Source of the DNA: a virus
DNA length: 64,000 nucleotides
Reading direction: 5' to 3' (one strand)
IMG/VR virus record: IMGVR_UViG_3300045988_072133
Coordinates: 32,001 to 96,000 of that record
The position numbers were made by a program, and so were the translations under genes. Below, piece after piece: positions 22,231 through 41,549 of this stretch (position 1 is its first letter; every line of letters begins with the position of its first letter). The notes under the pieces were generated by a model. It had not been told where the DNA came from. It did not search any database and was given only the letters and a program-made list of their open reading frames with translations.

Positions 22231-24627
22231 TTATTTACTAGTACTAGATGGTTTAGGCTTGGCTTTCTTAATAGCAAGATCTTTTTCTTTAATGTCTATC
22301 TCCTTTGATAACTTAGTCTTATCAAAAGCTAATCTTTCATTAAACTGCCTTATCTGTTCATCTAACTTCGCTCGTTCCATAGAGTTGTCTTGAACTTCTG
22401 GGACTTCATTCTCTGCATTTCCAGATTGTTTAATATGCTCAATAAGAATCTTAGTGTCATTATCGCGCTGATTAAGCATATCTTGGAAATTCATCTCAGC
22501 CTGCTTCATTTCCATCTGAGTCTGCATTTGCTGTTGTGCTATTTCTTGTTCCTGCTGAGCTTGTTCAGCTTGACGTTCTTGAATAGCTTGCTCGTCTTTC
22601 TCAATAGTCCTACGAATCTCTGACAGAGATGATGACGTATAAATCTTCATTATTGAAGAGAATGAGAGAGTTTGATTCTGCAAAGCAGCTTGTGCTAAAG
22701 CATCAAGTTTTGAAGCGAGATTCTGAGTTTCAGGAGAGGCATCTACTACAATTCCATAGTCGCTATCTGCAAAAGTGTCTCCATCAATTTCAAGAGATTT
22801 TATAGCTCCATCAGAGGTGATATACTGGAATTTCTTATTTCTACCTCTCATAGCTATTTTAGCTGTCTCTAAGAAACATTCAAGGGCTCTCCTTTTAACA
22901 TCATCGTGCATTGTAAATAACCATTCTGTAATATGAGAAGATTGTAAATTTGATCTTTCAACACCACCAACAGTTTCACGGTTACTAATCTGACCCTCTC
23001 GCTGTCGAGTAATACCAGCAACCTCTCCCATCTCATTTTTAATAAATTCTAGGAGATTAATGTGTTCCTGAATATAATTACCCTGTTCAGCATCTATAAC
23101 TCCATTAGACTGAATATTTAGAGCTCCTACAACCTTACCTTGAGCAGCTCCTCCATTTCCCTCCTTAAAGCTATCTGTAACAGCAACATGATTTACTTTT
23201 GCATAGTATAACCACTTGTCTATCTCCCAGCCTTTAGGAACCATAGCAAGATCTAGTTTTACAATTTTACCCCAGTTAGCAGCAATAGCTTTATTAAGCC
23301 TATCGTAGATAACGTCGTAAAAATAAGCAAAAGGCTTCATCATATCTACTAAAGAGAAAGGTCTAGAATCATTAAGGTTATACATAGATCCTACAATACC
23401 AAAATGACATCTAGATGGATTAGAAAGTCTATTATACTGTACTATCCTAGGTCTCATATTAACATAAATATCTGGACCTATTTTAGTACCTTCCCATGCT
23501 TCATTAATCCAAAAGATCTCTTCTTCTTCACCAGCTTCTTTATCTATAATGTAGGTTTCTGGATAAAAATCAAAGAGCTCTTCGCCAGTCTCAGGATCAT
23601 AAGATTTTACCTTCTTGATCTTTCTCTTACTCTTCCAATAAAGTCTTAATACTCTAATATTACCTTGGAGATCATAGTAGTTACTCGTTGCTGAAAATCC
23701 AGATTGTCCCATCAGTAGAAAATTCTCTATTACAGTACCTCCTGAAATATCTGTGCCATCGATCTCAGCAGTATTAATAAAGGCATTTCTTTCATCAATG
23801 TTGTACATAGAATCACTACTAAAAGTACTAGCTAGTTTATCTATACTATCAACATCTTTTTTAGATAGAACATCAAAGTAAGTATCTAAGATTCTACCTG
23901 GACTCCAAAAGTCTATAAGTATTATTAGATCTGCATCCTCAACTTTATTAGAAAAACCATTTTTGAAAATATGAACTTTTAAAGGATTAAGTCTTTCAAA
24001 AGTAGGCTCGCCCCCAACAATATCACATTGATAGATTTCCTCACCACAAATCATTGCATCCATAAACCCATCATTAAATATTCTGGGTATATTTAGCTCT
24101 TTCATGTAATGAGAAAGAACAGTACTAGCTCTCATTTCGATAATATCTTGCCATTGATAATCAAAATAGTAAGATAACTTATCTAGTTCTTTATTAAACT
24201 CCTCCTCTGACAAGTTCTCATCTTCTATCATAGCCTGAACTTGTTCTTGGAGCATTGCTAATTTACTATTCTCTATCTCTGAAATAGAATTGGGATTAGT
24301 TACAACAACTTTAAATTCAAATCTTCTCTTCGCTTCTTCTCCTTGGAGAACATGAAGCTTTGAGTTCATAATAGGGAAATGCTGAATAGATTCTGGAACA
24401 TATAGTGCATTGACATTGTCTGGATTAAGAATTAACTCTACATCTCTCATATCTAAAACACCATTTATGAGATTATAGTTAATTCTCTTCTTCAACAGAG
24501 AATTCCGCACCATATTGCCAAAATAGTAAGTTCTTTTGTCGGCCCAATCAAGATGCTGTTTTCTCCACTCCTTAGTTTTTTTACTATAAGACAACATCTG
24601 CGGGGGTAAGTTCTTTAAATCTATCAT
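22231..24627 (-). CDS. putative portal protein
   Basis: 798-aa ORF immediately downstream of large terminase gene (canonical TerL-portal order); Gln/Glu-rich C-terminal tail. Confidence 0.6.
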   Translation of the reverse strand: MIDLKNLPPQMLSYSKKTKEWRKQHLDWADKRTYYFGNMVRNSLLKKRINYNLINGVLDMRDVELILNPDNVNALYVPESIQHFPIMNSKLHVLQGEEAKRRFEFKVVVTNPNSISEIENSKLAMLQEQVQAMIEDENLSEEEFNKELDKLSYYFDYQWQDIIEMRASTVLSHYMKELNIPRIFNDGFMDAMICGEEIYQCDIVGGEPTFERLNPLKVHIFKNGFSNKVEDADLIILIDFWSPGRILDTYFDVLSKKDVDSIDKLASTFSSDSMYNIDERNAFINTAEIDGTDISGGTVIENFLLMGQSGFSATSNYYDLQGNIRVLRLYWKSKRKIKKVKSYDPETGEELFDFYPETYIIDKEAGEEEEIFWINEAWEGTKIGPDIYVNMRPRIVQYNRLSNPSRCHFGIVGSMYNLNDSRPFSLVDMMKPFAYFYDVIYDRLNKAIAANWGKIVKLDLAMVPKGWEIDKWLYYAKVNHVAVTDSFKEGNGGAAQGKVVGALNIQSNGVIDAEQGNYIQEHINLLEFIKNEMGEVAGITRQREGQISNRETVGGVERSNLQSSHITEWLFTMHDDVKRRALECFLETAKIAMRGRNKKFQYITSDGAIKSLEIDGDTFADSDYGIVVDASPETQNLASKLDALAQAALQNQTLSFSSIMKIYTSSSLSEIRRTIEKDEQAIQERQAEQAQQEQEIAQQQMQTQMEMKQAEMNFQDMLNQRDNDTKILIEHIKQSGNAENEVPEVQDNSMERAKLDEQIRQFNERLAFDKTKLSKEIDIKEKDLAIKKAKPKPSSTSK

Positions 24628-24727: not shown

Positions 24728-27031
24728 CTAATTATCCTTATGTAGATATTTAGCAAACCTATAATCATAATTCCTAGTAAAGAAATCATCATTACCTAAG
24801 TAATCTGCTTGATCTACATTGATAACTTCAGAAGGAGATAAATTACCACAAAGCATGAGTTTTTGCTCTCGTAGCAACATGAGCATTAATAAGGCATCGT
24901 AACGGTCAAAGTTGCTATCGGGATTCCACATAGATAACTCTTTCATGAGAGCTCTATAATAGCACCTATTAATGTTATTTATAGTGATTTCTGCCTCTTC
25001 TTCATGTCCATCTATAGTAACCTTCGTTACAACTTTAAGAGGCTTTAAAAGCCAGTCTCTGATGCGTGTACGGCCATATGTTTGAACTGGTTGTGTAGCA
25101 TTAACTCCTTTAGCCTTATTACCAAAGAAATTTCCCTTAACAATCTCTTTATCTTTTAAAAACTCAGGAATGTCAGATAGTAAATACAAACAGTTTGTTT
25201 TAGAAAAATATGTGAATAAACCCTTCTTATTATTCTCATAGAGTAATTCAGCATTATAGAATAAACAAATACGTCTACAGGTTTCATAGTAATCCTCTGC
25301 AAACATAGGTCTACCTACATATTCACAAACTAGTTCATCAGTAAATAAATCTAGTACATAGATTGATCCAAGAGACATAGTGTCAGATACATCATCATCA
25401 TAAGGGTCAGCACCTGCTATATAACGTCCCCAAGGTACTTTGCCATCAGGACCTTTAATGGGCATCTTATTAATATGTACAGCTCCTTCAAGCTTGTTAT
25501 CTTTATGAGGATAATCTAAAATAGGCTTTACATCCGCATCTGGAGTAAATTCAACTTTCCCTTCTTTAGTCTGAACAAGTCTTCCAACCCACATATCGTC
25601 TAAACTCTTAGGATTCTGATCTAATTCTAGAATACGATCATTTAATTTATCAGAAGGAAAAATATTACTATCCCTACGCATAATAGCATCTGTGATAGTA
25701 AATGCATACTCAGCTTTACGACGTGTGAGCTGAATAGGATCAGATGAGTTATACTTTAGGATTACACGATGTTTAATCTCTTCTAAAATAGCTCCTACAA
25801 CATCAGATACACCATCTTCATTGTAAAAACCTTTAGAATTAAGGTAACTAGGGAAGAAGAATATTGTTCGCCTAGCTCCTACAGCTCCTTTATCGAAAAC
25901 ATTTGGGAGAGAGTATACTGAATAACCATCCGGATAATTAATCATCTCAAGAGCTCCCATAAAATCTGAACCCTCAGAACCTCCTGTACCAAAGGCTATT
26001 GCTTGTCCAAAAGCCGCAGCTGCATTCTCCTGAACATTAGGTAAAGCTGTCTGCCATACATCTAGAAATTTCGGGAAAGTACCAAACTCTTCATAAAGCA
26101 TTCTATTCGAACGTTTACCACGAATCTTGTCAGGATCATCTTTAACAGCTACCCCTAATACTTCATTTTGAGAACCCCTAGGAATCATTGAATCCTTATC
26201 GATATACCCCGAAATCCACTGCATCTCTGAAAGAGAGTTCTTAAGTCTAGCACGAGGAAATTGAGTGTTTTTAGCACAGAAATCTATACCATCAATAAAT
26301 TTGTTAAGAGTACCGTCCTTAATAAGATACTCCTTCTGATATGCCGTTACAAGACATTTAACCTTATCATAAGAAATAGAATTCTCTCCTAAGAGGAAGA
26401 ATTTACATAGAATGGCAGCTGCATAATATGACTTCGATTTACCACGAGAAGCAATCTCAACAGAATGCTTTCCTCCTACAAAATCATCATATAAACCACC
26501 ATTACGGGCTTGATATTGATAGTGAGCCCTAAGATAAACACCTTCCCAGCATTCAGGAAAGTCTACAACACGATCACCTATGCGAGTACCTTTACGTATC
26601 TTAGTCTGAATAATAGGTAAATAATTTAAGTAGAAATAAAAATCTCCAGGAATCCATTCCCCATCTTCAGGTCTAACCATACCATCTAAGCACCTACGAA
26701 CTTCTCGTGTTAACCACATACCAAACTCTGATTTAGGATTTGCATCAGGACGAAGCTTAGTATAGCAACCATATTTTTGATAGTGTATAGCAGCTGGCCT
26801 AAAGTAGTCCATATTCTCTAATATATGTGGCTTACAAATATCTACGATAATCCTGCCAAAAGAGTCACGAGGTCTATCTTTAGCTCGTTGACGATCTGGT
26901 GAGATAAGATTCTTAATAAATTCTACATTAGTGATAATTTCTAAGAAATCATTCCATACTTCTGTAGATAAAGAATCTCTAAGTTCTTCTGTAATAGGTG
27001 TCTGATATTTATTAGTATCTATAAGTACCAT
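24728..27031 (-). CDS. terL: terminase large subunit
   Basis: 767 aa; Walker-A-like SVEIASRGKSKS ATPase motif in N-terminal half; acidic D-rich C-terminal half consistent with RNaseH-fold nuclease; start overlaps upstream stop (TAATG). Confidence 0.75.
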   Translation of the reverse strand: MVLIDTNKYQTPITEELRDSLSTEVWNDFLEIITNVEFIKNLISPDRQRAKDRPRDSFGRIIVDICKPHILENMDYFRPAAIHYQKYGCYTKLRPDANPKSEFGMWLTREVRRCLDGMVRPEDGEWIPGDFYFYLNYLPIIQTKIRKGTRIGDRVVDFPECWEGVYLRAHYQYQARNGGLYDDFVGGKHSVEIASRGKSKSYYAAAILCKFFLLGENSISYDKVKCLVTAYQKEYLIKDGTLNKFIDGIDFCAKNTQFPRARLKNSLSEMQWISGYIDKDSMIPRGSQNEVLGVAVKDDPDKIRGKRSNRMLYEEFGTFPKFLDVWQTALPNVQENAAAAFGQAIAFGTGGSEGSDFMGALEMINYPDGYSVYSLPNVFDKGAVGARRTIFFFPSYLNSKGFYNEDGVSDVVGAILEEIKHRVILKYNSSDPIQLTRRKAEYAFTITDAIMRRDSNIFPSDKLNDRILELDQNPKSLDDMWVGRLVQTKEGKVEFTPDADVKPILDYPHKDNKLEGAVHINKMPIKGPDGKVPWGRYIAGADPYDDDVSDTMSLGSIYVLDLFTDELVCEYVGRPMFAEDYYETCRRICLFYNAELLYENNKKGLFTYFSKTNCLYLLSDIPEFLKDKEIVKGNFFGNKAKGVNATQPVQTYGRTRIRDWLLKPLKVVTKVTIDGHEEEAEITINNINRCYYRALMKELSMWNPDSNFDRYDALLMLMLLREQKLMLCGNLSPSEVINVDQADYLGNDDFFTRNYDYRFAKYLHKDN

Positions 27032-27604: not shown

Positions 27605-27635
27605 TCAAAAAAGCTCCCTACTTGTGATAGGGAGC
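27605..27635 (-). terminator. rho-independent terminator immediately upstream of the terminase-module start
   Basis: Plus strand AAAAAA-GCTCCCTA-cttgtga-TAGGGAGC: on the minus strand a perfect 8-bp hairpin followed by UUUUUU, abutting the ATG at 27603. Confidence 0.6.
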
Positions 27636-27641
27636 GTTAAA

Positions 27642-28121
27642 TTAACATACTAGTTTCTTAGCCTTCGGAGGAGTAACTTCTGTTACTTCCCAATCAAAGT
27701 CATCCACTTTAAAGAAGATATTGGCACTGTCAATAAGTAGTGCAATCTTACCATCTATCTCAAACATGGGGATCTCAAAATCTAGAGTTTCATTATAAAA
27801 CTCATCCGGCATGTCTGCTTTGGTCTCATCTTTAGTGAAACGCTTCCGAGCGTACTTTGAGAAGTCAATCTGTACCAGATCCCCAGGTTTATATTCTCGT
27901 ACTCCAGGTCCTACAGCAATAACTTCCTGTACTTCTTTAAGCATACCTACAGAGTCTTTTTCAATAAGACCTGCTTCACTTACACACTCTTCCTCAGTGT
28001 AAGTATTAGATGTCACTATCATCTTCGTGAATGGAGGTGTCACCTTCTTTATCTTGAACTGCTTTCTTTGCATATTCTTTAAATCGCTTATTAAGGAATT
28101 GAGCTCGGGAATATGTTGCAT
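27642..28121 (-). CDS. hypothetical protein
   Basis: 159-aa ORF. Confidence 0.45.
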   Translation of the reverse strand: MQHIPELNSLISDLKNMQRKQFKIKKVTPPFTKMIVTSNTYTEEECVSEAGLIEKDSVGMLKEVQEVIAVGPGVREYKPGDLVQIDFSKYARKRFTKDETKADMPDEFYNETLDFEIPMFEIDGKIALLIDSANIFFKVDDFDWEVTEVTPPKAKKLVC

Positions 28122-28329
28122 AAAACTTGCCTAAGCTAGGAACATTAATGCTAGTCTGCATCTTTGTAAACTCTTCTTCTGTCATTTCCTCATTTACAGG
28201 AACATTTTCCAATGTATTCTTAACCCAATTCCAATATTCTCTATAAGCTATTTCTACTACGTCATCTGGCATATCTAATTTCTTAGCAGCAGCCAAAATT
28301 ATATCTTGGAGAGTCTTATTATTTATCAT
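28006..28329 (-). CDS. hypothetical protein
   Basis: 107-aa ORF; long overlap with downstream gene suggests one start is mis-set. Confidence 0.35.
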   Translation of the reverse strand: MINNKTLQDIILAAAKKLDMPDDVVEIAYREYWNWVKNTLENVPVNEEMTEEEFTKMQTSINVPSLGKFYATYSRAQFLNKRFKEYAKKAVQDKEGDTSIHEDDSDI

Positions 28330-28732
28330 AACTAATCCTAAAATTTAGTAATAGCCTATAAGAGTCCTCTTCATATTCTAAAGAGGGAATGTATCTTTTA
28401 CTAATTGTATTATTAGTAATAACTCCTGCTTTTCGTAGATTTGTTAATACTGACTGAAAGTTTCCCGGAGATATGCCTAAGCTTCCTACAATACCTTTTT
28501 TAATCTCATCAGTGAACAAAACTTTGTCCAGTATATCATCATCTGTAATTGTTCTAGATAATTCAAATCTACGTTGTAATAGTGCTGCTAACACTGCGAC
28601 TTCCCTACCAGGTAATCTATGTAAAGGCTTAAGAAACTCTAGCCAGAGCTTAAAAAAGTTGAGACTAGAGGTCTTTAAATTGGTAGAGATAGACACAATG
28701 TCAGTATTCTTAGTCATATCCCGCTTACTCAT
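28319..28732 (-). CDS. hypothetical protein
   Basis: 137-aa ORF. Confidence 0.45.
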   Translation of the reverse strand: MSKRDMTKNTDIVSISTNLKTSSLNFFKLWLEFLKPLHRLPGREVAVLAALLQRRFELSRTITDDDILDKVLFTDEIKKGIVGSLGISPGNFQSVLTNLRKAGVITNNTISKRYIPSLEYEEDSYRLLLNFRISYDK

Positions 28733-29040
28733 TATTCTACATCTTTATCTGCTTCACAAGTTTCACATGAATCCGGTTCAGGAATTGTGAGCATATTCTC
28801 AATATTAATAACCGCTTTACTTACAAAATCTTCACTAAAGAGATCCTTATACTTAAGGACGTTGAATAAACTATCAAGGCGTTTACCCATAACAACTTCC
28901 ATAGCTCGATTGTACTCTACTAATAGCTGCTGATACTCTTTATGCTTATTCTGTAGCTGTACCTGTAGGTTATTAGCGATATCCTTAAGTTGCTCATAGT
29001 TTAACTTCTCCGGCTGTTTTGCTTCCATAGCTTTAGTCAT
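28732..29040 (-). CDS. hypothetical protein
   Basis: 102-aa ORF, coiled-coil-like. Confidence 0.45.
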   Translation of the reverse strand: MTKAMEAKQPEKLNYEQLKDIANNLQVQLQNKHKEYQQLLVEYNRAMEVVMGKRLDSLFNVLKYKDLFSEDFVSKAVINIENMLTIPEPDSCETCEADKDVE

Positions 29041-29042: not shown

Positions 29043-29300
29043 TTAAAATTCTTTACCATATTTAGCTCTGTAGAGAGCATTCCATTCATTAATAGACGTT
29101 GTAGATATATCTGTACTACCACAATCATTACAATATTCAGAGATGCCTGATTCATTATAGGCCATAATTGCTAAACTAAGGCACTTTTTACAGTAGAATA
29201 CAGGCTCTCTATTATAGTCCTCTTTACTCCACTTAACCTTCTCAAAATCGGAAGGAGACTCTAAAGGAGGACACTTAGGCTTAATTAATTCTCCTTCCAT
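29043..29300 (-). CDS. zinc-ribbon protein
   Basis: 85 aa with CKKC...CNDCG Cys pairs. Confidence 0.45.
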   Translation of the reverse strand: MEGELIKPKCPPLESPSDFEKVKWSKEDYNREPVFYCKKCLSLAIMAYNESGISEYCNDCGSTDISTTSINEWNALYRAKYGKEF

Positions 29301-29569
29301 TGTTTAAGATATTGATTAAAATCTATTTTTCTAAAAGCGTCAATAATTCTTAATTCAGTAGAACTAATATTTTTCTCTGTCATATCCTCAGATTCATCAC
29401 TTACTATAAAAAGTGTCTGAAATCCTTTATCATATAAGAGCTGAAGTTCTAGACCAATAGATACTTTATTATTTTCAGCTGAGAATGGACCCCATAATAT
29501 TAACTTATAGGGAGGAGTATAAGCTTCATTAAACGCCTCAATATAAGCTGTTAGATGCTTCATTCTCAT
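29285..29569 (-). CDS. hypothetical protein (not GroES-like)
   Basis: 94-aa ORF directly downstream of chaperonin gene; lacks GroES mobile-loop or beta-barrel signature. Confidence 0.4.
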   Translation of the reverse strand: MRMKHLTAYIEAFNEAYTPPYKLILWGPFSAENNKVSIGLELQLLYDKGFQTLFIVSDESEDMTEKNISSTELRIIDAFRKIDFNQYLKQWKEN

Positions 29570-31052
29570 TAATTATTACACATTTAGTAGATAAGAACAT
29601 ATATGCTACAGAAAGCGCATTCTCTATAGAGACTCTTGTTACTTTAGCAGGGTCTAAAATATTAGACTCTAAAGCATCTTCATAATAGATAGGCATAGTG
29701 TCAAGAATAAGCTTTCTACATGCCATGAGAGCTTTAGCTAAAATATAATATCCTTTCTTCTCTAAAGTCTTAGAGATGTCTTCCTGTATAATGCCTGCTC
29801 CTACAACTACTCCTTCTTCAATAGCAGCTCTAGTAGCACATACTGCATCCTCAATCCTATCTTTCTTCTCAGACATTTCAATTTCTGTAGGTGCTCCTAC
29901 ATAAATAACAGCTACTCCACCAGATAATTTAGCAATTCGAGATTTAATATCATCTATAAGATATTTAGGATAATCGTTTTTTAATGACTCCTTAAGCATC
30001 TCTACTCTTGCTTTAATTGATTCATTAGCTTCAGTTGAACCAATAATAGTAGTATTGTCTGAAGTCACTACGACTCTTTTAACTGTACCTAACTTAATAT
30101 CATCTGTTGATGATGGATATCCCTTTAAAGGTATAATAGGTAGTTTATCATATACTGGAGATCCTGTAATTATTGAAATATCTTCTAAAAGATCTTTCTT
30201 ATATTCACCTACACCAGGCGCTCGAATTGCTGCTATTTTAAGCAATCCTCTTTGGACATTCCTAACTATAGCATTAATTACTTCAGGTGAGTAGTCATTA
30301 GCTATAAGTAGGATTTCTTCATTGTCTTGTACTATATATTCAAGGATTGAGAATAGCTCCTTAATATTATTTAGGATACCATTGTAAATTAGTACTCTAG
30401 GATTATTTAATACTACTGCTCTATTAGCAGGGTCATTAATAAAATAAGGAGAGATATATCCCTTATTAATTTGCATCCCTTCTACGGTTTCGGCATATGT
30501 ATCAAAGCCATTAGACTCTTCTAGAGTAATAACACCATCATATCCTATCTTTGATATAACATCTGCAATTAGCGTACCTATAAATTCATCCCCATTAGCA
30601 GAAATAGTAGCTATATGCTTGATGCTATCCGGAGTATCACCAACTTTGGTGGCTAGGGATTTAATAACCTCCCTAGCGACCTCGTTGGATTTCTCTAACT
30701 CTGCTCTTATAGCTTTAGGATCTGCACCTGCAACAAGTTGCTGATAGATGAGATTGATTAAAGCTTGAGCGATGATAGTTGATGTTGTAGTCCCATCTCC
30801 TGCCATATCTGCTGTCTTAGCAGCAGCTTCTTTGACAAGCTGTACACCTACATCATATAGTGGCTCTGAAGAATTTATAGCTCTGGCTACAGTAACACCG
30901 TCCTTCGTAACCTTCGGATAGTTATCCTCATATATAACTACTGTATTACCTTTAGGTCCGAAGGTAACCTTTACAGCATCTGCTAAAAGGTCAACTCCTT
31001 TCTTAACCTCAGAAAGAGCATCTAAACCAAATACTATATCCTTACTCTTCAT
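29538..31052 (-). CDS. groEL: GroEL-like (Cpn60) chaperonin
   Basis: N-terminus LADAVKVTFGPKGNTVV..TKDGVTVARAI parallels GroEL VLADAVKVTLGPKGRNVV..TKDGVSVAREI; equatorial ATP motif MAGDGTTTSTIIAQAL present. 504 aa, C-terminus lacks the GGM repeat tail. Confidence 0.85.
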   Translation of the reverse strand: MKSKDIVFGLDALSEVKKGVDLLADAVKVTFGPKGNTVVIYEDNYPKVTKDGVTVARAINSSEPLYDVGVQLVKEAAAKTADMAGDGTTTSTIIAQALINLIYQQLVAGADPKAIRAELEKSNEVAREVIKSLATKVGDTPDSIKHIATISANGDEFIGTLIADVISKIGYDGVITLEESNGFDTYAETVEGMQINKGYISPYFINDPANRAVVLNNPRVLIYNGILNNIKELFSILEYIVQDNEEILLIANDYSPEVINAIVRNVQRGLLKIAAIRAPGVGEYKKDLLEDISIITGSPVYDKLPIIPLKGYPSSTDDIKLGTVKRVVVTSDNTTIIGSTEANESIKARVEMLKESLKNDYPKYLIDDIKSRIAKLSGGVAVIYVGAPTEIEMSEKKDRIEDAVCATRAAIEEGVVVGAGIIQEDISKTLEKKGYYILAKALMACRKLILDTMPIYYEDALESNILDPAKVTRVSIENALSVAYMFLSTKCVIINENEASNSLY

Positions 31053-31053: not shown

Positions 31054-31446
31054 TTAAAGAAGTTTACTAATAAGTTTATTCATTTCAGTAATAGCGTCTG
31101 CCAGTTCCTTAACTAAGGCTTTTGAATCAGCAGGACTAAATTCATCTTCTGTTAAATCTTCAGGAACTTTCTCATCCTTTCCCTCATTAATACATTCTCT
31201 ATGAAGAATAAACCAAGACATACTGTGAATATCCTCTTGTGAGGGAACATATTCTACTGCTCCAATGGGAGTCACCAACATTAGCAAAGGTTTCTTAGGA
31301 TACCCATAATCTACATGAGGTAGGACTTCCATAATTACACTGCCATTTGAGGCATATTTGGATTTTGTCATGACTAGATTATCAGGATCCTCCATAATTT
31401 TACTTAAGGCTTCACCAAAGGTGTAATACTTTCTTCTTGCTTCCAT
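31054..31446 (-). CDS. hypothetical protein
   Basis: 130-aa ORF. Confidence 0.45.
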   Translation of the reverse strand: MEARRKYYTFGEALSKIMEDPDNLVMTKSKYASNGSVIMEVLPHVDYGYPKKPLLMLVTPIGAVEYVPSQEDIHSMSWFILHRECINEGKDEKVPEDLTEDEFSPADSKALVKELADAITEMNKLISKLL

Positions 31447-31642: not shown

Positions 31643-31661
31643 AAAAGTTAAATTTAATTAG

Positions 31662-31734
31662 CTGGGAGAACAGGGTTCGAACCTGCGTTACCTTGATTAA
31701 CAGTCAAGTGCCTAAACCATTCAGCCATCTCCCA
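31662..31734 (-). tRNA. trnN: tRNA-Asn (anticodon GTT)
   Basis: Minus-strand 73-nt cloverleaf: acceptor TGGGAGA/TCTCCCA, U8, anticodon stem CTTGA/TCAAG with loop CTGTTAA (GUU), T-loop TTCGAAC, discriminator G. Confidence 0.75.
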
Positions 31735-31882: not shown

Positions 31883-32131
31883 CTATAAATACAAACTATA
31901 GCTTAGTAAACTATTAAAGGCTAGGAATTTAATTAGAAACCCAATACTACCTCCTAGTACTGTTAATATCCAATCAATCCAATCCCATTTACCTCCATGC
32001 TGTTTATCTTTAAATTCCATTCCGCTAGCTACCCCTATAGCTAATCCCAAATCAATAAAGCCTACAGGTATAGCATAAATAAAATGCTTTCCTCTATTCG
32101 AGGCTTTAAACCATTCTAATATTCTTTTCAT
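31883..32131 (-). CDS. two-TM small membrane protein (holin-like candidate)
   Basis: 82 aa with two hydrophobic helices and charged linker. Confidence 0.4.
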   Translation of the reverse strand: MKRILEWFKASNRGKHFIYAIPVGFIDLGLAIGVASGMEFKDKQHGGKWDWIDWILTVLGGSIGFLIKFLAFNSLLSYSLYL

Positions 32132-32186
32132 CTTAAATGTGATACAAAGATAAGTAAAATTTCCTATATTAGGAATGTTATAAGTA

Positions 32187-33041
32187 TTATTTTAATTTAT
32201 TCCCAATAAAATCACTTATATTTTTATAAATTTCTGCTGGATAGCATTCAGTTCTACCGTTAAAGTAAACTAAAGGCATCTTTCTTATAGGTCTAAACTG
32301 TTTATGGATTAATTTCTCTAGGTTATATATTTTTGAAGCATCTCCTTCAAATACATCTATTACTTCTACAGAATAGATTTTAGGTATTTGAATTAATCTG
32401 GTATTAATATTTTTATGAGAAGTGATTCCTACTTTTAAGAACTCCCCTTCTATTTCAGATTTTAACTTTACAATATATAACTTTCCTATACCATTATTTT
32501 TTGAACACTGCTTCTTAAAAATATGTCGAGAATATCCTTTATATTCTAATGCACACTCTGGACATCCTGAGTGATTATGAATAGCATTAGAAACACTTAC
32601 TTCAAAATCACCATGTATAGGACAAGTAATTATTACTTTATCTCTACTAGAGATAGGGTTACATTTTTCATAAGTATAGAAATTACCTAAAGAATCTTTA
32701 ATCTTTTGTAAATACTTAGATTTCTTAGTAGTAAGATTTAAGATAGTCTCTACATTAGGTGAGTACTTTTGTACTCTACAAAATTGGGCAGTTTCCTTAT
32801 TTAAGACTACAATTTTAGTTCCTTCCAACTCAATAGCTTCTAAAGAGGTTTCCTTAAAAGTATTTTCATTAAGATACTTTAGATAAGAACTAGAAATCAT
32901 ACTTTGTACTCCAAAAGTAAATCTACTAACTGAACCTTTTACACATCTGTAAATGTAACCATCTTTCTCTATAAGAAACTCTATATCAGATTCTCCTATA
33001 ACATTGAGATTGTATCTTTCTTTATATAAATTGTAATTCAT
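32187..33041 (-). CDS. GIY-YIG superfamily (T5orf172-like) nuclease with zinc finger
   Basis: GKLYIVKLKSEIEGEFLKVGITSH...TRL resembles GIY-x10-YIG..R core in C-terminal half; CPIHGDFEVS..HNHSGCPEC zinc-binding motif. Confidence 0.4.
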   Translation of the reverse strand: MNYNLYKERYNLNVIGESDIEFLIEKDGYIYRCVKGSVSRFTFGVQSMISSSYLKYLNENTFKETSLEAIELEGTKIVVLNKETAQFCRVQKYSPNVETILNLTTKKSKYLQKIKDSLGNFYTYEKCNPISSRDKVIITCPIHGDFEVSVSNAIHNHSGCPECALEYKGYSRHIFKKQCSKNNGIGKLYIVKLKSEIEGEFLKVGITSHKNINTRLIQIPKIYSVEVIDVFEGDASKIYNLEKLIHKQFRPIRKMPLVYFNGRTECYPAEIYKNISDFIGNKLK

Positions 33042-33126: not shown

Positions 33127-34851
33127 TTAATAATCAAAAGGATTATAAAATCCTAATCTAACAGAGTCTAAATCTCTCTCTACACCTTTATTTCTACCAA
33201 GTTCTCTCTTATTTAAATATCTCTTAGAATGTCTCTTCATATTAGGAATATCTCCAGAATGTGCTGCCTTAGTTAAGAATTTATAATCTTTAAGTCCTGG
33301 ATTATATTGAACATCTCCTAAGACTGACTGAACCTTAAACCCTAAGCTATCAAAGGATCCTTCACTAAATCTGCTATCATAAATTTTTCTTGCCTTATCA
33401 AGATATACTCCAGCTATACTATCTAAAGTATTATTAACTTGCTCGTCTGTTAAATAACCTTGTTTTTCCACAATTTTTTGTAGAGGATCTTTCTTTCCCT
33501 TATTAAGTTTAAACCCATATCCTATAGTCTTTTTACCACCTTCTACACTATCGTGAGGATACCAACGATTAGTCTTTTTATCATACCCATTATTTGATCT
33601 ATCCTTGCCATTCTCTTCTTCTACAAATCTGCGAGTCATGTCAGCTCTAACTGCACGCTCCTTTTGGATATCTCTTCTTTCTACATAGTTAGTCATTGGA
33701 AAATCAGTATATTCAACTTTAGGTATAATAGAAATTCCGGTATATCCTCCACTATCAAAATTATTAACTCTACGAAGTGTAGGTTTATAAGGAGAAGTAG
33801 CATATTCCCCAGGTCTGAGAGTATAATATCTCCCTGTAGATGAATCAATATAAAGGCTATAACCATCAGCCTTATCCTCCCTTATAGCCATACCAAAAGT
33901 AGGATGTTTGGGATTTTTAAGAATCATACCAGTTCTCGGGTCTCGCGAAGCCCAATGCTTAGATTTAGGATCATACATATCACCTACTTCTTCAGCAGTC
34001 CTATAATCATAATACTGGTCAGGATTATCATACTCATCTCTTAAAGGACCTCCAAATGCAGCTAGTTTCCTACCATCCTTTTCAAGGCTAGACTTTGTAG
34101 AAGCTACATTATTAAGCAAGTGTAATAGATATTCATCAGTATAACGATTGACTATATCAGTGTCATCATACTTCTCACGCCATTTCTTAATATCTTCTAC
34201 TGAGTATTTCTTAGTAGGATCAAGCTTATTTAAATACCTAAACTGCATTAAGCGAGAGTAGATCTCATTAGCAGAATCTTTATAAGAATTATATTGCTTA
34301 CCCTCTTGCAACTTATCCCCCTCAAAGCCATACCTAATAGCATTAATTTGAGGATCAGCATTTAAAGAGTGTGTTAACTCATGGACATCAGTACCAGCAT
34401 AAGGACTAATGTATGATATAGCATGAGTAGAGGGATTATAAGCTCCTCCAGTATGATTAGATAGCTTCTTTATAGACTCAAATTCTGAGTCAGGAACATG
34501 TGGAAACTTCGTATTACCTAGTACATCATATTGCTTAACAGTACGTAAATTCTTTAGCTGATTCTGGTACTCTTTAAAAGCAGCTCTATCAGACCAACTC
34601 TTAGGCAATATACTATAAGGAATCATTGTAGAACCACTATTTCTAAAGTTCTCACGAAACTGCTCTTGCCTATTAGATAACCACGAAGCTATGAAATCCT
34701 GAGCTTGAGTACTATGAACATTATCTACTTCACCACCATCAGCAAACTTATTGTAATGATCCCTCATAGCACTAAGTTGGGTCACTCCATTTTGTAGATA
34801 GGTTTTCATTAAATTAGACCTATCTGACATTGATAACTCTTCCCACTTCAT
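33127..34851 (-). CDS. multidomain lysin: HExxH metallopeptidase-like region + C-terminal T4-lysozyme-like (GH24-like) domain
   Basis: TDVHELTHS (HExxH); C-terminal EGGKKTIGYGF..LTDEQVNNTLDSI..FDSLGFKVQSVLGDVQYNPG parallels T4 lysozyme E..[31 protein letters not shown]. Confidence 0.5.
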   Translation of the reverse strand: MKWEELSMSDRSNLMKTYLQNGVTQLSAMRDHYNKFADGGEVDNVHSTQAQDFIASWLSNRQEQFRENFRNSGSTMIPYSILPKSWSDRAAFKEYQNQLKNLRTVKQYDVLGNTKFPHVPDSEFESIKKLSNHTGGAYNPSTHAISYISPYAGTDVHELTHSLNADPQINAIRYGFEGDKLQEGKQYNSYKDSANEIYSRLMQFRYLNKLDPTKKYSVEDIKKWREKYDDTDIVNRYTDEYLLHLLNNVASTKSSLEKDGRKLAAFGGPLRDEYDNPDQYYDYRTAEEVGDMYDPKSKHWASRDPRTGMILKNPKHPTFGMAIREDKADGYSLYIDSSTGRYYTLRPGEYATSPYKPTLRRVNNFDSGGYTGISIIPKVEYTDFPMTNYVERRDIQKERAVRADMTRRFVEEENGKDRSNNGYDKKTNRWYPHDSVEGGKKTIGYGFKLNKGKKDPLQKIVEKQGYLTDEQVNNTLDSIAGVYLDKARKIYDSRFSEGSFDSLGFKVQSVLGDVQYNPGLKDYKFLTKAAHSGDIPNMKRHSKRYLNKRELGRNKGVERDLDSVRLGFYNPFDY

Positions 34852-35788: not shown

Positions 35789-36112
35789 AAAGATAATTTA
35801 TAAAACTTTTGCAATATACAAAAAATTTCCCATATTTCCAAATTTTTAAATAATAAAATTTTTTACAAAATAAAATTTTTTCCGGAGAAAATGTTTGAGG
35901 GTGACATATTCCCCACATTGCCCCCACCCCCGCAACCTTTTGGGGTTCTCCCCCCGTCAGGTTTCTTAGGAGGGTTAAAGAAGGCGACCCGGCCAGCCTT
36001 CGGAGGACCGAACGGTCAGTGCATCTTGCACCGTAGTTACGGAAACCTCTCGGTATAATCGTAGCCTCACCGACACAAAGCAGGTTACAACGTATCATAA
36101 ACTTATCAAGTT
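35789..36112. promoter_or_regulatory. divergent intergenic control region (strand switch) with AT-rich half and GC-rich structured half
   Basis: All upstream genes are minus, all downstream genes plus. 35790-35890 is extremely AT-rich and contains an ATATACAAAAAATTTCCCATAT palindrome-like motif. 35890-36110 is GC-rich with a TATAAT hexamer at 36054-36059. Confidence 0.45.
35814..35835. promoter_or_regulatory. degenerate copy 3 of the ATATAC-A6-TTT-YYCATAT motif at head of minus-strand block
   Basis: ATATACAAAAAATTTCCCATAT, 26 bp upstream of the first minus-strand start codon. Confidence 0.35.
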
Positions 36113-36565
36113 ATGACAAAAGCTGATATTCTCGGCAAACTGTATGCGGTGAATCTCCGGAAGGACGAGACGGATCTGGACATCGTGATCTCTCGTATCG
36201 AGCCGGTCTTCAAGTCCACCGCAAAACTCGATGCCAATGGTGAGCCCACTGGTGATCGTGAGTTCATACGTGACGAGCAGGGCAATCCCGTTGAGGATCC
36301 TCGCCGGCGTCGTATCTTCTTCAAGGTTGAAGGGGATGACGTACCTCGCAGTCAGTTCGTGTTCACCAACACGTTCACCGACGGTAAGGTTCCGACCATC
36401 ACGGACTACAAGAAGGGTCTGAATGCCCGCATGACTGTCTGGACGGATGACGAGGATCGCATCCAGGTCTCGATGGTTGCCTACAATCCTGGCGATGCTG
36501 TTGTAGTCGCCACCAGCACTCTCGAAGCTCTGAATTCGGGAAAGGTCAACTTCGCTCTGAAGTAG
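36113..36565 (+). CDS. GC-rich early hypothetical protein (150 aa)
   Basis: Clean ORF with markedly higher GC than the rest of the genome; followed by a strong hairpin + T-run terminator. Confidence 0.6.
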   Translation: MTKADILGKLYAVNLRKDETDLDIVISRIEPVFKSTAKLDANGEPTGDREFIRDEQGNPVEDPRRRRIFFKVEGDDVPRSQFVFTNTFTDGKVPTITDYKKGLNARMTVWTDDEDRIQVSMVAYNPGDAVVVATSTLEALNSGKVNFALK

Positions 36566-36575
36566 GCCACTTCTT

Positions 36576-36617
36576 TCTCCTCACACTCATCATTTGGGTG
36601 TGGGGAGATATTTTTTT
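36576..36617 (+). terminator. rho-independent terminator
   Basis: TCTCCTCACAC..loop..GTGTGGGGAGA 11-bp stem followed by TATTTTTTT, 11 nt after stop codon. Confidence 0.6.
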
Positions 36618-36700
36618 GAATCTCTCCAAGTATGCATTACCGTAGGCCGAAGGCCAAAGATAGTTTAGTTTAATGAACATCATTTAAGCTATAAATTACT

Positions 36701-36796
36701 TGCCTTCCTCCCCCCTTTCTTCCCCCCTCTTTCCTCCCCCTTAACAATCCTCCTCCTATTACCCCCCTATAATCCCCCCTCTTTCCCCCTTTCTTT
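36701..36796. repeat. polypyrimidine C6-T-rich degenerate tandem repeat tract
   Basis: ccttcctcccccctttcttcccccctctttcctccccctt...acccccctataatcccccctctttccccctttcttt: at least six C5-6 runs separated by T-rich spacers, one strand nearly pure pyrimidine. Confidence 0.7.
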
Positions 36797-37452
36797 AAAT
36801 AGGTTTTCCCCATAAATTTACTATGTCATGAGGACTTATGTTATGGTCGGTTGGCCAGAAATTCAATTAGTCATGGAACATCCCAGGTGGAGTGAATGCA
36901 GATTCTGTATTGAAACTAATGCAAACCCTTGCCCTGACTCTACTTATGCTGTACCTGTAGATATCTACAAGGAAGTATTCAAACTACCCAAATCTCTGCA
37001 TAAGAAAGCAAAGTTGTGAGTTCAGAGTGAGAGATTATCTCCCAATACCCTCTATTTCGCATTTTAAGGGCCCAAATTTGGACGATCTATATAATTTGGA
37101 GTAACTGTCCATTCCCGATATTATCTCAAGTATTTGCTACCTTAAAATCCTTTTCTCGGAAGTCTTATGTAAATATGCGCTAAAGGATTAGGATATTAAT
37201 GTATCAGATACCGTTTCACTAACTCTTATTTGCATGTATTACGCCCTAATAATGCATGCAGTTGTTACATTTAGCCCAATAGATGTAGCAATCCTAGCCT
37301 GGTTGAGGTTGATCCCTTTACCAGGCACTAACACTCATAGACTCTAATGTAGATTATAGGCAAAAGCTTATAATTTCTCTGTCCCTATAGATGTATATTA
37401 CACAATAGAGTCTATGAGTTTTTCACAGAATATTCACATAATAACTTAAGTT

Positions 37453-37863
37453 ATGAACTCATATTTGGTTGAAACAGATGATTTCACAGCCCCTATAAAT
37501 TACAATATTTTAGTAGGTGGCATCAGGTCTAAATATGGTCATGGACAATATCAGAAGCGTTACTTTCACATCATAGTAACAAGTGGTTCTATGGTCATTG
37601 CGAGTACGAATCCTGCTATAAGTAAGACTTATCCTTCACAGGATATTATTGCTTATTATAAGCAGAAGACCCTGAAAGATTTACGAATATTTACCTTTGG
37701 TAAATACAAGTATAAGACATACTTAGAGGTTATCAAGAGTGATCCTTGGTATGTCAAATGGTGTCTCCGGAACATAAAAGATTTTAGTCTCACTGCAGAT
37801 GAGAATACTTATCTTAGTGATGCATACTATCAACGTTCTTTAGACCGTATTTGGCACTTTTAA
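37453..37863 (+). CDS. hypothetical protein
   Basis: 136-aa ORF. Confidence 0.45.
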   Translation: MNSYLVETDDFTAPINYNILVGGIRSKYGHGQYQKRYFHIIVTSGSMVIASTNPAISKTYPSQDIIAYYKQKTLKDLRIFTFGKYKYKTYLEVIKSDPWYVKWCLRNIKDFSLTADENTYLSDAYYQRSLDRIWHF

Positions 37864-38195: not shown

Positions 38196-38269
38196 GGGCC
38201 TTTAGCTCAGTTGGTAAGAGCAGCGAGCTCATAACTCGAAGGTCATCGGTTCAAGCCCGGTAAGGCCCA
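38196..38269 (+). tRNA. tRNA-Met/fMet/Ile2 type (anticodon CAT)
   Basis: GGGCCTT acceptor/AAGGCCC, TAGCTCAGTTGGTAAGAGC D-arm, anticodon loop CTCATAA, T-loop TTCAAGC, discriminator A. Confidence 0.8.
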
Positions 38270-38286
38270 CTAAATTTTAATTCTAA

Positions 38287-38442
38287 GATGTTATTATTTC
38301 TATTCCTAATGTATTGTATACAGCTATGTGCGTTGATTAATTTAGCCGAGTATAACATACCTGACTGGATTAAATTTTGTGCATTTATTCCTGTAATAGG
38401 GTTAATAGCAGAAATTATAGCTGTACTATTCTACAGAACTTA
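38287..38442 (+). CDS. small hydrophobic peptide (51 aa)
   Basis: Hand-translated MLLFLFLMYCIQLCALINLAEYNIPDWIKFCAFIPVIGLIAEIIAVLFYRT; below track cutoff. Confidence 0.3.
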
Positions 38443-39018
38443 ATCTCTATTAAGAGATGAAATATTTCATTCATCACGGACTTGTATCAAGGATGCAAGA
38501 ATGTCGGCAGTTAGCCCACTGTCGTATCGAAAAGGGCATCAACCGTAACCATAATGGAACGATTGTGAGCCATGCGACCTCCTGTTAAGGCTAAATTAGT
38601 CTATTCCACAGTCGCAAAAAAGGCTTTGATACTAACCACACTCAGCAAGTATCAGCGAGGTAAGCGCCCTCGGATCAAAGCTGGTGAATACATCAGAGTC
38701 TTTGGCAAATTGGTAAACATCTCAGAGATGCCTGCCTTTTTGAGAAATTAGCAAATTATTACTGTCTAGATCCAAATTATTTAAACTTGCTTTGAATGTA
38801 GCAGTCCCTGGATAATGGCTCATAAGACATACAATCTGGAGTCAATGTAGAACACAACTCATTAGTCTATCAGCTCGGTATACTTCGTGAGATACCAGTG
38901 CCAGCGTCACCCCTTTAATGCGGCAGATAGTTCTAATGGGAAGCAGTTAACTAAGTCAGATGCAGTAATTTTTAATAATTTATCACACAATCGCTAACAT
39001 TTAATTACACAAATCATT

Positions 39019-39306
39019 ATGCTTACCATTATTCCCAATTCAGGAAAAGCATCGCCGAAGATGCGTTTTGACCTCAACATGGACCTTAAAGGTTGTTCTT
39101 ACAGCCACAAGGTCATCGCCAACCCCAAGACTAAGCAGCCTCTCTTTCAGGAGCTAATTGGCATTGACGAAACAAATACGGGGTTTCAGCGACTCTCCTA
39201 CAACTGCAAGTTTTTTGCAGGAAAGAAGCCTATCTCCTACAAGAAATTCATGGAGAAAACATTCAACAACTACGTTCTGAACCAGGCCAAGAAGATGGCC
39301 AACTAA
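39019..39306 (+). CDS. hypothetical protein
   Basis: 95-aa ORF. Confidence 0.45.
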   Translation: MLTIIPNSGKASPKMRFDLNMDLKGCSYSHKVIANPKTKQPLFQELIGIDETNTGFQRLSYNCKFFAGKKPISYKKFMEKTFNNYVLNQAKKMAN

Positions 39307-39318
39307 ATCATCATTATC

Positions 39319-39510
39319 ATGTCAAAAGCAAGAGGAGCAAGTGCAGCACGATCTGCACGACGTGGTACAAATATGTACAAAGTACGCCCCAGTAATGTAG
39401 GTAAAGGCAAACGATTCAGCCGTATACAGGTTATTTCCACGTGGGATACTCTGCATCATAAACCTATTATTACTAAGATTATCTATCACTTTAACGACCA
39501 GCACTATTAG
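39319..39510 (+). CDS. small basic protein
   Basis: 63-aa Arg/Lys-rich ORF; preferred over antisense 39322-39588. Confidence 0.35.
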   Translation: MSKARGASAARSARRGTNMYKVRPSNVGKGKRFSRIQVISTWDTLHHKPIITKIIYHFNDQHY

Positions 39511-39513
39511 TAT

Positions 39514-39786
39514 ATGACCATTGCTAAAGTAACTAAATACAAGGATTCTTCTGCCCGGAATGTATTCCGGGTGGGAGACCTTGTACAAAAGATTAACACT
39601 GGTGCAATAGTGTTAGTCACTCATCCTACTAACAAGAAGGGTAAATTTGGAGGTGTAGTAATAACTGTCGAGAACAACAGTAATGCTCTTATTGGAGCTC
39701 TTGGAGGTTATTCTCCTCTGGACTATCAACTTTTCTATGGATCTGTAACACTTAAATCTACGAGAGATGAGCAGAGTAAGTATTAG
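39514..39786 (+). CDS. hypothetical protein
   Basis: 90-aa ORF. Confidence 0.45.
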   Translation: MTIAKVTKYKDSSARNVFRVGDLVQKINTGAIVLVTHPTNKKGKFGGVVITVENNSNALIGALGGYSPLDYQLFYGSVTLKSTRDEQSKY

Positions 39787-40015
39787 TCCTCATGATAAAC
39801 CTAAGTTTAACATAGGAGATATTGTAACCTACAACTCAGCAGTTTTTATGGTTACAGATGAGTGTGAAGGTAAGGTTGACGTAGATGAAAGTGAGTTTAT
39901 AGGAGTAGTATTATACACTGGTTATTCGGACTATCAGATCGGAGAAGTTAGTGTATTAGAAAAGAGTGCATTCTCTGCCTTTCATGGCACTATCACCATT
40001 AATTCTGATTTATAA
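39767..40015 (+). CDS. hypothetical protein
   Basis: 82-aa ORF. Confidence 0.4.
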   Translation: MSRVSISPHDKPKFNIGDIVTYNSAVFMVTDECEGKVDVDESEFIGVVLYTGYSDYQIGEVSVLEKSAFSAFHGTITINSDL

Positions 40016-40239
40016 TGATTTGGATCGTTTTACTCCTTGCCCTGGTGGCAACATTTTGCTTCCTGGACAACTTGGTACAAACCTTAAACAACCCCAGGGA
40101 TGTCTATGAACCTGGCTTAGGTACAACAGCAACCTATGAGAAGTACCAAAAGAAGAAGAATGCTCTGGCTATAGATCGCATGCTTTACATGTGGGTTGCA
40201 GCCTTGTTCTGGATGATATTCGTATGTCTTTCGAATTAG
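40015..40239 (+). CDS. small membrane protein
   Basis: 74 aa, two hydrophobic helices. Confidence 0.4.
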   Translation: MIWIVLLLALVATFCFLDNLVQTLNNPRDVYEPGLGTTATYEKYQKKKNALAIDRMLYMWVAALFWMIFVCLSN

Positions 40240-40418
40240 TATCCATACTAGCTTTAATTATTATCCCATTATTAGTACTATTACTTATGAGAGTAATAGA
40301 TATTGTGATGGGATGGATTATTGCTTTTATTCTCAATCCTAAGAGTTTAATACTTACTCTTCTCGCTTCACATGAAAAAAATTCAGAATTTAGAGATAAT
40401 GAGCATACCGCTCCTTAG
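40191..40418 (+). CDS. small membrane protein
   Basis: 75 aa hydrophobic. Confidence 0.35.
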   Translation: MGCSLVLDDIRMSFELVSILALIIIPLLVLLLMRVIDIVMGWIIAFILNPKSLILTLLASHEKNSEFRDNEHTAP

Positions 40419-40632
40419 CTCCTATCTAGCGAAGCATAAGAATGTCTTCACTAGAGATTGTGTTCTTCAAGACATCGGTCGATTTCTGACATTCCGTGAG
40501 TTGCAGTTCCTCCATAAGAATCATGGTATCAGTGATGCTGAACTGGGATTCTACATGGATATGAAAGCTCAAAATTCTTTCACGGAGAATCAGTTCAAGA
40601 AGATCCAGGAAATTCACGCAAATCTGAAGTAA
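40372..40632 (+). CDS. hypothetical protein
   Basis: 86-aa ORF. Confidence 0.4.
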   Translation: MKKIQNLEIMSIPLLSSYLAKHKNVFTRDCVLQDIGRFLTFRELQFLHKNHGISDAELGFYMDMKAQNSFTENQFKKIQEIHANLK

Positions 40633-40634
40633 TC

Positions 40635-40883
40635 ATGAATCTCACAGATCTCTTACTTTCCTGTCCTGTACTCTATCCCAGTACTAAGGATGGTGAAGGT
40701 AATATTCTGGTTACTGATGACCAGGATAATGACTATTCAGTTGGTGTAACCCTGGATTACCTGCCTGAAGATCACAAGTGGGTTGCATCCTACAGTGATT
40801 TTATCGAATCAACACCTACGTCTGACCCTGAAGCTGCTGTAGTAGATCTACAGAATAAGCTGAAGGTTAGAGGTCTCATGTAG
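40635..40883 (+). CDS. hypothetical acidic protein
   Basis: 82-aa ORF. Confidence 0.4.
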   Translation: MNLTDLLLSCPVLYPSTKDGEGNILVTDDQDNDYSVGVTLDYLPEDHKWVASYSDFIESTPTSDPEAAVVDLQNKLKVRGLM

Positions 40884-41065
40884 GTATAAAGAAAGTGGTT
40901 GCTTGAAGCGTAACTAAGACAGCAACAGCCATTGGATAAATACGTAATTCATGAATGGCAGGTGAGGTGACGTAGCTACTGCAGGAAAATGGCAGAGTAG
41001 ATTGAAAGAGCTCCTCTTGATAGCAACCTGAGGCAAGAAGCTAAATAGCTATCTTTTTATTAACT

Positions 41066-41150
41066 GGAGAGTTGTCCGAGTGGTTTATGGTGACAGTCTT
41101 GAAAACTGTTGTACGGCAACGTACCGGGGGTTCGAATCCCTCACTCTCCG
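41066..41150 (+). tRNA. trnS: tRNA-Ser (anticodon TGA)
   Basis: 85 nt, GGAGAGT/ACTCTCC acceptor, anticodon stem ACAGT/ACTGT with loop CTTGAAA, long variable arm, T-loop TTCGAAT, discriminator G. Track ORF 41080 uses a GTG inside the tRNA and is spurious at its 5' end. Confidence 0.8.
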
Positions 41151-41529: not shown

Positions 41530-41549
41530 AATGAAAAATACTGTAATTT

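Follow-up and report, generated by a model that had tools for sequence, protein, structure and literature searches.

The 64-kb window analysed here (positions 32,001 to 96,000 of IMG/VR virus record IMGVR_UViG_3300045988_072133) encodes a GroEL-like group I chaperonin (29538..31052, minus strand) and, 1.4 kb downstream, a divergent Cpn10/GroES-like co-chaperonin (27642..28043, minus strand). It is likely that the two constitute a two-component phage GroEL/Cpn10 group I chaperonin system, probably built on a single ring. The window derives from a crAss-like phage of gut Bacteroidota; it is AT-rich (guanine-cytosine (GC) content approximately 36%), and a region of approximately 5 kb shares 81% DNA identity with the uncultured phage cr108_1 (Crassvirales, Steigviridae; human faeces). 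Every gene between approximately 36 kb and position 553 is encoded on the minus strand. Those for the large terminase (24728..27031; PHROG 7e-89), the portal (22231..24627; PHROG 1e-140) and the 504-amino acid (aa), 56.6-kDa major capsid protein (9506..11020; PHROG 2e-108) are located downstream of the GroEL locus, which is therefore assigned to the morphogenesis arm of the crAss-like genome. Proximity to packaging genes had been remarked in the original prediction, made from the letters of the DNA alone, and is borne out by the terminase and portal.

The GroEL-like gene begins with ATG and encodes a protein of 504 aa (54.7 kDa). Its product matches the Pfam family PF00118 (Cpn60_TCP1; 2.6e-48, 165.4 bits against a gathering cutoff of 34.3 bits) across the equatorial, intermediate and apical domains, as well as PHROG 5725 ('chaperonin groEL'; 1.4e-126). 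In phmmer searches of the PDB, GroEL structures are retrieved at 1e-116 to 1e-105, with an ancestral Fibrobacteres-Chlorobi-Bacteroidetes GroEL as the best match, and pairwise MAFFT alignment with Escherichia coli GroEL (reference sequence from NC_000913) extends end-to-end at 41% identity over 499 columns. These matches confirm the GroEL homology first recognized by eye, and the motifs then quoted are also found (LADAVKVTFGPKGNTVV...VTKDGVTVAR, and AGDGTTT at residues 84-90). All ATPase residues are kept, namely T30, K51, D52, D87-GTTT91, I150, S151, D398 and D495 (E. coli numbering); the codons of the GDGTTT nucleotide-binding loop (residues 85-90, aligned to GroEL D87-T91) occupy 30783..30800 on the minus strand. 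The alignment is uncertain at the nucleotide-contact residues 479-481, which stand beside a 22-residue deletion. No second GroEL copy was found in the 64-kb window.

The original prediction had the protein stopping about 40 residues short of bacterial GroEL. However, the last equatorial block (ILDPAKVTR...LSTKCVII) is present, and the 44-residue shortfall relative to E. coli GroEL corresponds to internal deletions of 9 and 22 residues together with the loss of the 16-residue GGM tail. Absence of this tail had been correctly noted: the protein ends ...VIINENEASNSLY, whereas the GroELs of E. coli and Bacteroidota carry GGM tails. Both deletions fall in the C-terminal equatorial segment. The first (GroEL approximately 427-437, with E434 and D435 lost) has its junction between K432 and K433 (29754..29759, minus strand), and the second (GroEL 457-478, with E461, S463, V464 and N467 lost) between L450 and D451 (29700..29705, minus strand). 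The 22-residue deletion takes out the basal helix of the equatorial domain, on which E461-V464 lie. The boundaries agree between HMMER-to-PDB alignments, pairwise MAFFT, an alignment of 20 chaperonins and an alignment of Bacteroidota GroELs, and they are identical down to 64% identity in related viral loci (L007, L013, L015, L016, L017 and cr108_1). The nearest cellular Bacteroidota GroELs are all full length with GGM tails.

These deletions bear directly on ring number. A conserved pair of salt bridges, K105-D435 and E461-R452, connects the rings of GroEL, and the single-ring variant GroEL-SR carries the substitutions R452A/E461A/S463A/V464A (PMC5575113). In the window protein K105 is replaced by Gln, while D435, E461, S463 and V464 lie inside the deleted segments. 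Both bridges are likewise absent from mitochondrial Hsp60 (mtHsp60), which is predominantly single-ring and works with Hsp10 (PMC5575113). Given that both inter-ring bridges, S463, V464 and the GGM tail are all gone, the phage GroEL is, as judged from its sequence, most likely a single heptameric ring like mitochondrial Hsp60/Hsp10 rather than a 14-mer. The single-ring architecture raised in the original prediction is thereby plausible, on the basis of deletions which that prediction had not seen. Mapping of residues against GroEL and phage chaperonins, recommended at the same time, gives a divided outcome, with the ATPase and apical residues kept and the inter-ring contacts lost.

A whole-database search places the protein in a discrete clade of short GroELs, comprising approximately 15 clusters (clustered at 90% identity) with lengths of 487-505 aa and identities of 63-99%, which are carried on contigs of 94-105 kb. 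Below this clade there is a sharp fall to cellular Bacteroidota GroELs of 540-549 aa, at 41-45% identity. Pairwise comparison with relatives yields ratios of nonsynonymous to synonymous substitution (dN/dS) of 0.05-0.18, at synonymous divergence (dS) >1. It is very improbable that the gene is a decaying captured host groEL whose deletions represent damage: although the protein has lost 31 internal residues as well as its tail, and the larger deletion, of 22 residues, adjoins nucleotide-contact residues, the reading frame is intact with all catalytic residues conserved, the same deletion boundaries persist to 64% identity under the dN/dS values above, and the approximately 15 clusters sit on genome-length contigs. 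A degraded pseudogene lacking catalytic Asp residues, the alternative that accompanied the original prediction, is rejected on the same grounds of conserved catalytic residues (the Asp residues among them), shared deletions and low dN/dS. The 504-aa gene thus has the sequence features of an intact, selected group I chaperonin homologue with a complete ATPase site, and the conserved deletion boundaries, low dN/dS and discreteness of the clade mark the short GroEL as a stable, selected phage variant.

Length varies modestly within this group. Relative to cr108_1 and several other relatives, the window protein has an apical insertion of approximately 9 residues (the PIIPLKGYPSSTDDI region; residues approximately 306-319, 30097..30138), which is common to L015 and P0161/P0164; relatives without it measure 494-496 aa, versus 504 aa here. 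Two long metagenomic GroEL homologues, P0178 (663 aa; 45% identity across 83% of the query) and P0191 (622 aa), rank just under the phage clade and over cellular GroELs, and may be fusions or gene-calling artefacts.

The claim that the chaperonin has no GroES partner does not survive inspection of the genes downstream. A GroES homologue elsewhere in the genome had been named beforehand as the finding that would overturn it, and one is present in the same gene string, at 27642..28043; a partner-less phage chaperonin was therefore the wrong description. The two immediate neighbours, of 94 and 130 aa, are indeed not GroES-like by Pfam, PHROG or GroES hidden Markov models (HMMs), and no other GroES-like open reading frame (ORF) of at least 40 aa was found in the window with either HMM. 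The partner is likely a product of 133 aa (15.2 kDa) starting from GTG at 28043, rather than from the alternative ATG codons at 28073 and 28022, because homologues begin MTPPFTKM... and this GTG lies at the corresponding position. The longer ORF (27642..28121) is weakly matched in PHROG by 'co-chaperonin GroES', at 1.5e-3, and by 'head morphogenesis', at 1.3e-4.

Family-level comparisons give a stronger signal. Close homologues of the Cpn10-like protein are few, and an exhaustive profile search gathered 304 representatives; 25 of the 128 aligned family members match Pfam PF00166 individually (best 9.8e-8). The 12 best PDB matches of the family profile are all GroES/Cpn10, in alignments that span the N-terminal strand, the mobile loop, and the V-A-V-G and C-terminal dGe.l.l...Di..ie strands. 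Comparison of the family with seven canonical GroES sequences by hhalign gives 96.4% probability (E 1.2e-9; 86 columns), and the canonical GroES of Bacteroides phage SJC03 matches the family HMM at 3e-8. An AlphaFold2 model from the 128-sequence alignment reached a predicted local distance difference test score (pLDDT) of 88.6 and a predicted template modelling score of 0.74; this depth was required, since a shallow 11-sequence alignment gave a pLDDT of 45 and its model was discarded. The predicted structure has the GroES beta-barrel fold, its top 29 PDB matches in Foldseek are all Cpn10, and a viral structure library returned viral co-chaperonins. Taken together, the profiles and the predicted fold show ORF 27642..28043 to be a divergent gene of the Cpn10/GroES fold. 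Its dN/dS is 0.05-0.14 (0.05-0.18 for the GroEL-like gene).

The predicted co-chaperonin departs from canonical GroES in several respects. Its mobile loop reads A-G-L-I-E, within a family-wide pattern of (G/S/N)-G-(L/I/V)-(I/L/V). In viral GroES proteins, the loop follows a rule of a conserved glycine followed by small hydrophobics, with a charged third position in 23% of cases (PMC5649160); the window loop fits this rule, with the charged third position. The roof beta-hairpin of GroES is absent, AVGPGVREYKPGD standing in its place, a loss also seen in T4 gp31, CocO and some virioplankton GroES (PMC5649160). Relative to GroES, the protein is also extended at its C-terminus and, after 'FSKY', carries an insertion of approximately 20-24 residues.

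The same gene has been annotated unevenly in related phages. tblastn finds it as 'putative 10kDa chaperonin' in ΦcrAss001 (gp15), IAS virus, cr85_1, cr111_1, the PhiCrAssBcn phages and others. The ΦcrAss001 protein is an orthologue of the window protein (30% identity, E 1.6e-11) and, like its Steigviridae homologues, occupies the same place, after the HU gene and before gp16/TerL. In cr108_1 and Cellulophaga phage phi14:2, by contrast with these annotations, the gene is left as 'hypothetical protein'; the family HMM and BFVD structural matches identify it as QOR58956 in cr108_1 (L001 6584..6964; 2.4e-47 and 1.7e-17, respectively) and as gp107 in phi14:2 (L024 7767..8156; 3.8e-10 and 7.5e-7). 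The true start of the cr108_1 gene probably lies farther upstream than in its gene model, since the model omits the conserved TPPFTKM N-terminal strand. With the partner labelled in this way, inspection of neighbouring annotations alone misclassifies such systems as GroES-less.

Five genes separate the GroEL-like and Cpn10-like genes, all on the minus strand. The first is the 94-aa ORF (29285..29569), which overlaps the GroEL stop codon and has no ΦcrAss001 homologue that could be found. It is followed by homologues of ΦcrAss001 gp11 (29043..29300; a putative zinc-finger transcription factor by annotation, blastp 52% identity, 1e-18), gp12 (28732..29040; weak, blastp 1e-3), gp13 (28319..28732; a VpsT-like putative regulator by cr108_1 annotation, blastp 39%, 2e-31) and gp14 (28006..28329; HU-like, by synteny and blastp at 41% identity, 3e-21). 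Upstream, the 130-aa ORF (31054..31446, minus strand), likewise lacking a detected ΦcrAss001 homologue, ends 1 nt before the GroEL start. From 31446 to 27642 these co-directional genes overlap or stand no more than 2 nt apart. An intrinsic-terminator-like hairpin, consisting of a 9-bp stem followed by T6, lies 7 nt past the Cpn10-like stop codon (27613..27635, minus strand); it is the strongest in the region, and its position is kept with compensatory stem changes in L015, L016, L017 and cr111_1. No terminator-like site was found on the minus strand between GroEL and this hairpin. The tight packing of the genes, the absence of an internal terminator and the conserved end hairpin support, though do not prove, a single transcription unit from GroEL to Cpn10. 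A sigma-70 promoter scan was uninformative, with 48 sites against 48.8 expected, and Bacteroides-type promoters fall outside its scope.

The linkage extends beyond the window. In GroEL-anchored loci searched with a local Cpn10-like HMM, the Cpn10-like gene lies approximately 1.4 kb downstream of GroEL in every one of the 16 related viral loci whose downstream sequence reaches far enough, as well as in cr108_1. The order in cr111_1 is GroEL, two small genes, VpsT-like, HU, 10kDa chaperonin and terminase, and phi14:2 carries both GroEL and Cpn10-like genes.

The partner gene is the older member of this association. The order gp11-gp16 of ΦcrAss001 corresponds to that of the window 85-aa, 102-aa, VpsT-like, HU-like, Cpn10-like and 190-aa genes (E-values of 1e-3 to 2.5e-46 in blastp), and no GroEL was found in the complete ΦcrAss001 genome (best tblastn E 0.13). 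Lacking its own GroEL, ΦcrAss001 would have to pair gp15 with that of the host. By sequence comparison, the Cpn10-like gene appears as an older component that is widespread in crAss-like phages without GroEL, ΦcrAss001 among them, and for this reason the ancestral protein presumably has host GroEL as its partner, as T4 gp31 is known to have. The same alignment of gene orders shows GroEL and its two orphan flanking ORFs as a lineage-specific insertion upstream of a conserved module. This history leaves room for an arrangement with no dedicated pair, in which the Cpn10-like protein serves host GroEL and the phage GroEL boosts folding capacity via host GroES or mixed rings. We regard that arrangement as rather unlikely, given that the window clade and cr111_1 share a terminator-bounded gene string and phi14:2 has both genes. 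A GroEL-like apical groove should in principle accept host GroES, but in a 14-mer the phage subunits, with their equatorial deletions, would not mix easily with those of the host; the prevalence of the Cpn10-like family in GroEL-less phages and the five intervening genes are the remaining points in its favour.

A further possibility, in line with the original prediction, is a lidless chaperonin of the type represented by phage EL gp146, OBP gp246 and AR9 gp228, which would fold or hold a client such as an endolysin without encapsulation. These chaperonins act without a co-chaperonin, that of EL without GroES binding (PMC9598537; PMC7185714), and they share with the window protein a phage origin. 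They are also phage-encoded GroEL homologues for which no GroES was found within ±1.5 kb flanks, and the window GroEL similarly has no adjoining groES and no GGM tail. OBP gp246, which has been determined experimentally to be single-ring (PMC9598537), resembles it in being short in the same equatorial segment, with 11 of the 22 residues of 457-478 kept. The apical domain, however, tells against this assignment. Nine apical GroES/substrate-binding residues were compared (Y199, S201, Y203, F204, L234, L237, L259, V263 and V264), at which the window protein has YSYF-F-L-I-V-R: six of nine are identical (YSYF, L237 and V263) and eight are conservatively hydrophobic, the changes at 234 and 259 being conservative and V264 becoming Arg. 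Identities at these positions number 2/9 in EL, 1/9 in OBP and 3/9 in AR9, versus 8/9 and 7/9 in two phage GroELs that adjoin a canonical GroES (SJC03 and L021, respectively). Overall identity is 23-30% to the EL, OBP and AR9 chaperonins, compared with 41-45% to cellular GroELs, and in all relatives examined the gene string includes a Cpn10-like gene. The window protein is accordingly not, from these alignments, an EL/OBP/AR9-type chaperonin, and a lidless mode of action is improbable.

Nor are phage chaperonins very rare, contrary to what had been supposed: 264 phage records match at E<=1e-10. An adjacent GroES is common among the non-crAss phage GroELs in the collection, and viruses that carry GroEL frequently have a co-chaperonin gene of their own (Marine et al.; PMC5649160).

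In the two-component system that we favour, a heptamer of the Cpn10-like protein would cap the phage GroEL to form an ATP-driven folding cage, made alongside the packaging and morphogenesis genes, and the same lid could probably cap host GroEL too. By the precedent of T4 gp31 and gp23, its likeliest client would be the major capsid protein (56.6 kDa). The cage of GroEL-GroES has a capacity of roughly 60 kDa, to which the mass of this protein comes close. Absence of the roof from the lid might give a larger cage, a proposal already made for gp31 (PMC5649160). As a possible though tentative extension of this model, the short crAss GroEL (487-505 aa) may be a natural obligate single ring, born by the loss of ring-ring segments and the GGM tail, that cycles with a pre-existing roof-less, insertion-bearing Cpn10 lid as a minimal mtHsp60/Hsp10-like cage dedicated to the 57-kDa capsid protein.

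Several considerations weigh against a dedicated single-ring pair. The window represents 64 kb of an approximately 100-kb genome, the rest of which lies outside it. The Cpn10-like protein is a remote homologue, assigned through family profiles and a predicted fold; taken singly, it has no match to Pfam Cpn10 (PF00166), and direct phmmer against the PDB returns none. Its gene does not adjoin GroEL, unlike those of most phage GroES-GroEL pairs, and because it was present before GroEL in these phages, its product may act with host GroEL alone. In the GroEL-like protein, V264 is Arg and K105 is Gln, and nucleotide handling may differ because the 22-residue deletion adjoins residues 479-481. Loss of the known contacts is no proof of a single ring, since mtHsp60 still makes double-ring 'football' complexes via other contacts (PMC5575113; PMC7174398). 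GroEL-SR traps GroES with a half-life of ~300 min, too tightly to cycle (PMC5575113), and a working single ring would therefore need a weaker lid interaction. Binding between the two window proteins is postulated, and the capsid-protein client is pure analogy.

The GroEL gene itself belongs to a kind that is known and has been annotated before, phage GroEL+GroES pairs and the crAss '10kDa chaperonin' both being present in databases. The corresponding genes of cr108_1, cr111_1 (QOR59211) and phi14:2 (gp117) already bear the annotation 'chaperonin GroEL'. That of cr108_1 (QOR58950) is an orthologue, 84-86% identical in amino acids to the window protein and matching it in position and deletions, whereas that of cr111_1 differs (28.5% identity and another gap pattern) within a gene order like that of the window. 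In the literature searched on crAss-like or Crassvirales GroEL or chaperonin, the system and its deletions were not found described, which is not proof of novelty; the conserved inter-ring excision in a co-chaperonin-equipped phage GroEL appears to be the one feature so placed. In this crAss-like clade, residues whose mutation gives single-ring E. coli GroEL are deleted, while the GroES-binding groove and a Cpn10-like gene are kept. If the rings are single, the clade would offer a natural and selectable answer to the engineering problem of single-ring GroEL trapping GroES, as well as a tractable model for the folding of large capsid proteins by crAss-like phages in Bacteroides. If these rings also cycle with the Cpn10-like lid, a working single-ring GroEL/ES would have evolved independently here, in a group that ranks with the most abundant human-gut phages.

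With the GroEL-GroES of E. coli and Bacteroidota the window pair shares a three-domain chaperonin, the ATPase residues and the apical groove, and a partner with the GroES fold (as predicted) and mobile loop. The pair differs from bacterial GroEL in lacking the inter-ring segments and GGM tail, and from bacterial GroES in lacking the roof hairpin, in its insertion and C-terminal extension, and in being encoded five genes away rather than adjoining. Compared with mtHsp60-Hsp10 and the single-ring variants SR1/GroEL-SR, the contacts are lost here by deletion of whole segments instead of substitution. Set beside the phage co-chaperonins T4 gp31 and RB49 CocO, the Cpn10-like protein has a predicted fold that is closer to cellular GroES/Hsp10 than to gp31; unlike the window phage, T4 has no GroEL of its own. 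The chaperonins of EL, OBP and AR9, of which OBP and AR9 are single-ring, sit in jumbo-phage genomes, unlike that of the crAss-like phage.

The region upstream of the GroEL gene block shows additional features. The neighbouring lysin of the original prediction is not confirmed. The 574-aa ORF taken for it (33127..34851, minus strand) has no match in Pfam and a weak one in PHROG, at 8.5e-4, to 'minor head protein and DNA pilot'. The orthologue in cr108_1 carries the annotation 'morphogenesis protein', and an HELTH (HExxH-type) motif is visible by eye in the window ORF. Adjacent to this ORF are a 284-aa endonuclease-like ORF (32187..33041, minus strand; PHROG 'endonuclease' 2e-29, Pfam DUF723 and T5orf172) and, beside the latter, an 82-aa ORF (31883..32131, minus strand). 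The DNA match to cr108_1 ends at approximately 31849, and the cr108_1 locus has no counterpart of 31883..33041; this stretch has the look of a homing endonuclease inserted between tRNA-Asn and the gene for the 574-aa 'morphogenesis protein'. The window carries tRNA genes for Asn, Met, Ser, Arg, Leu, Gln and Thr, seven in total, at 31661..31734 on the minus strand and within 38196..50890 on the plus strand. As in cr108_1, the gene for tRNA-Asn lies directly upstream of the GroEL gene block, and far larger tRNA arrays occupy the equivalent place in ΦcrAss001 and cr111_1. Near 36-37 kb (about 36000..37500), the GC skew changes sign and gene orientation goes from minus to plus, which marks where the structural arm of the genome meets its other arm, at a divergent junction.

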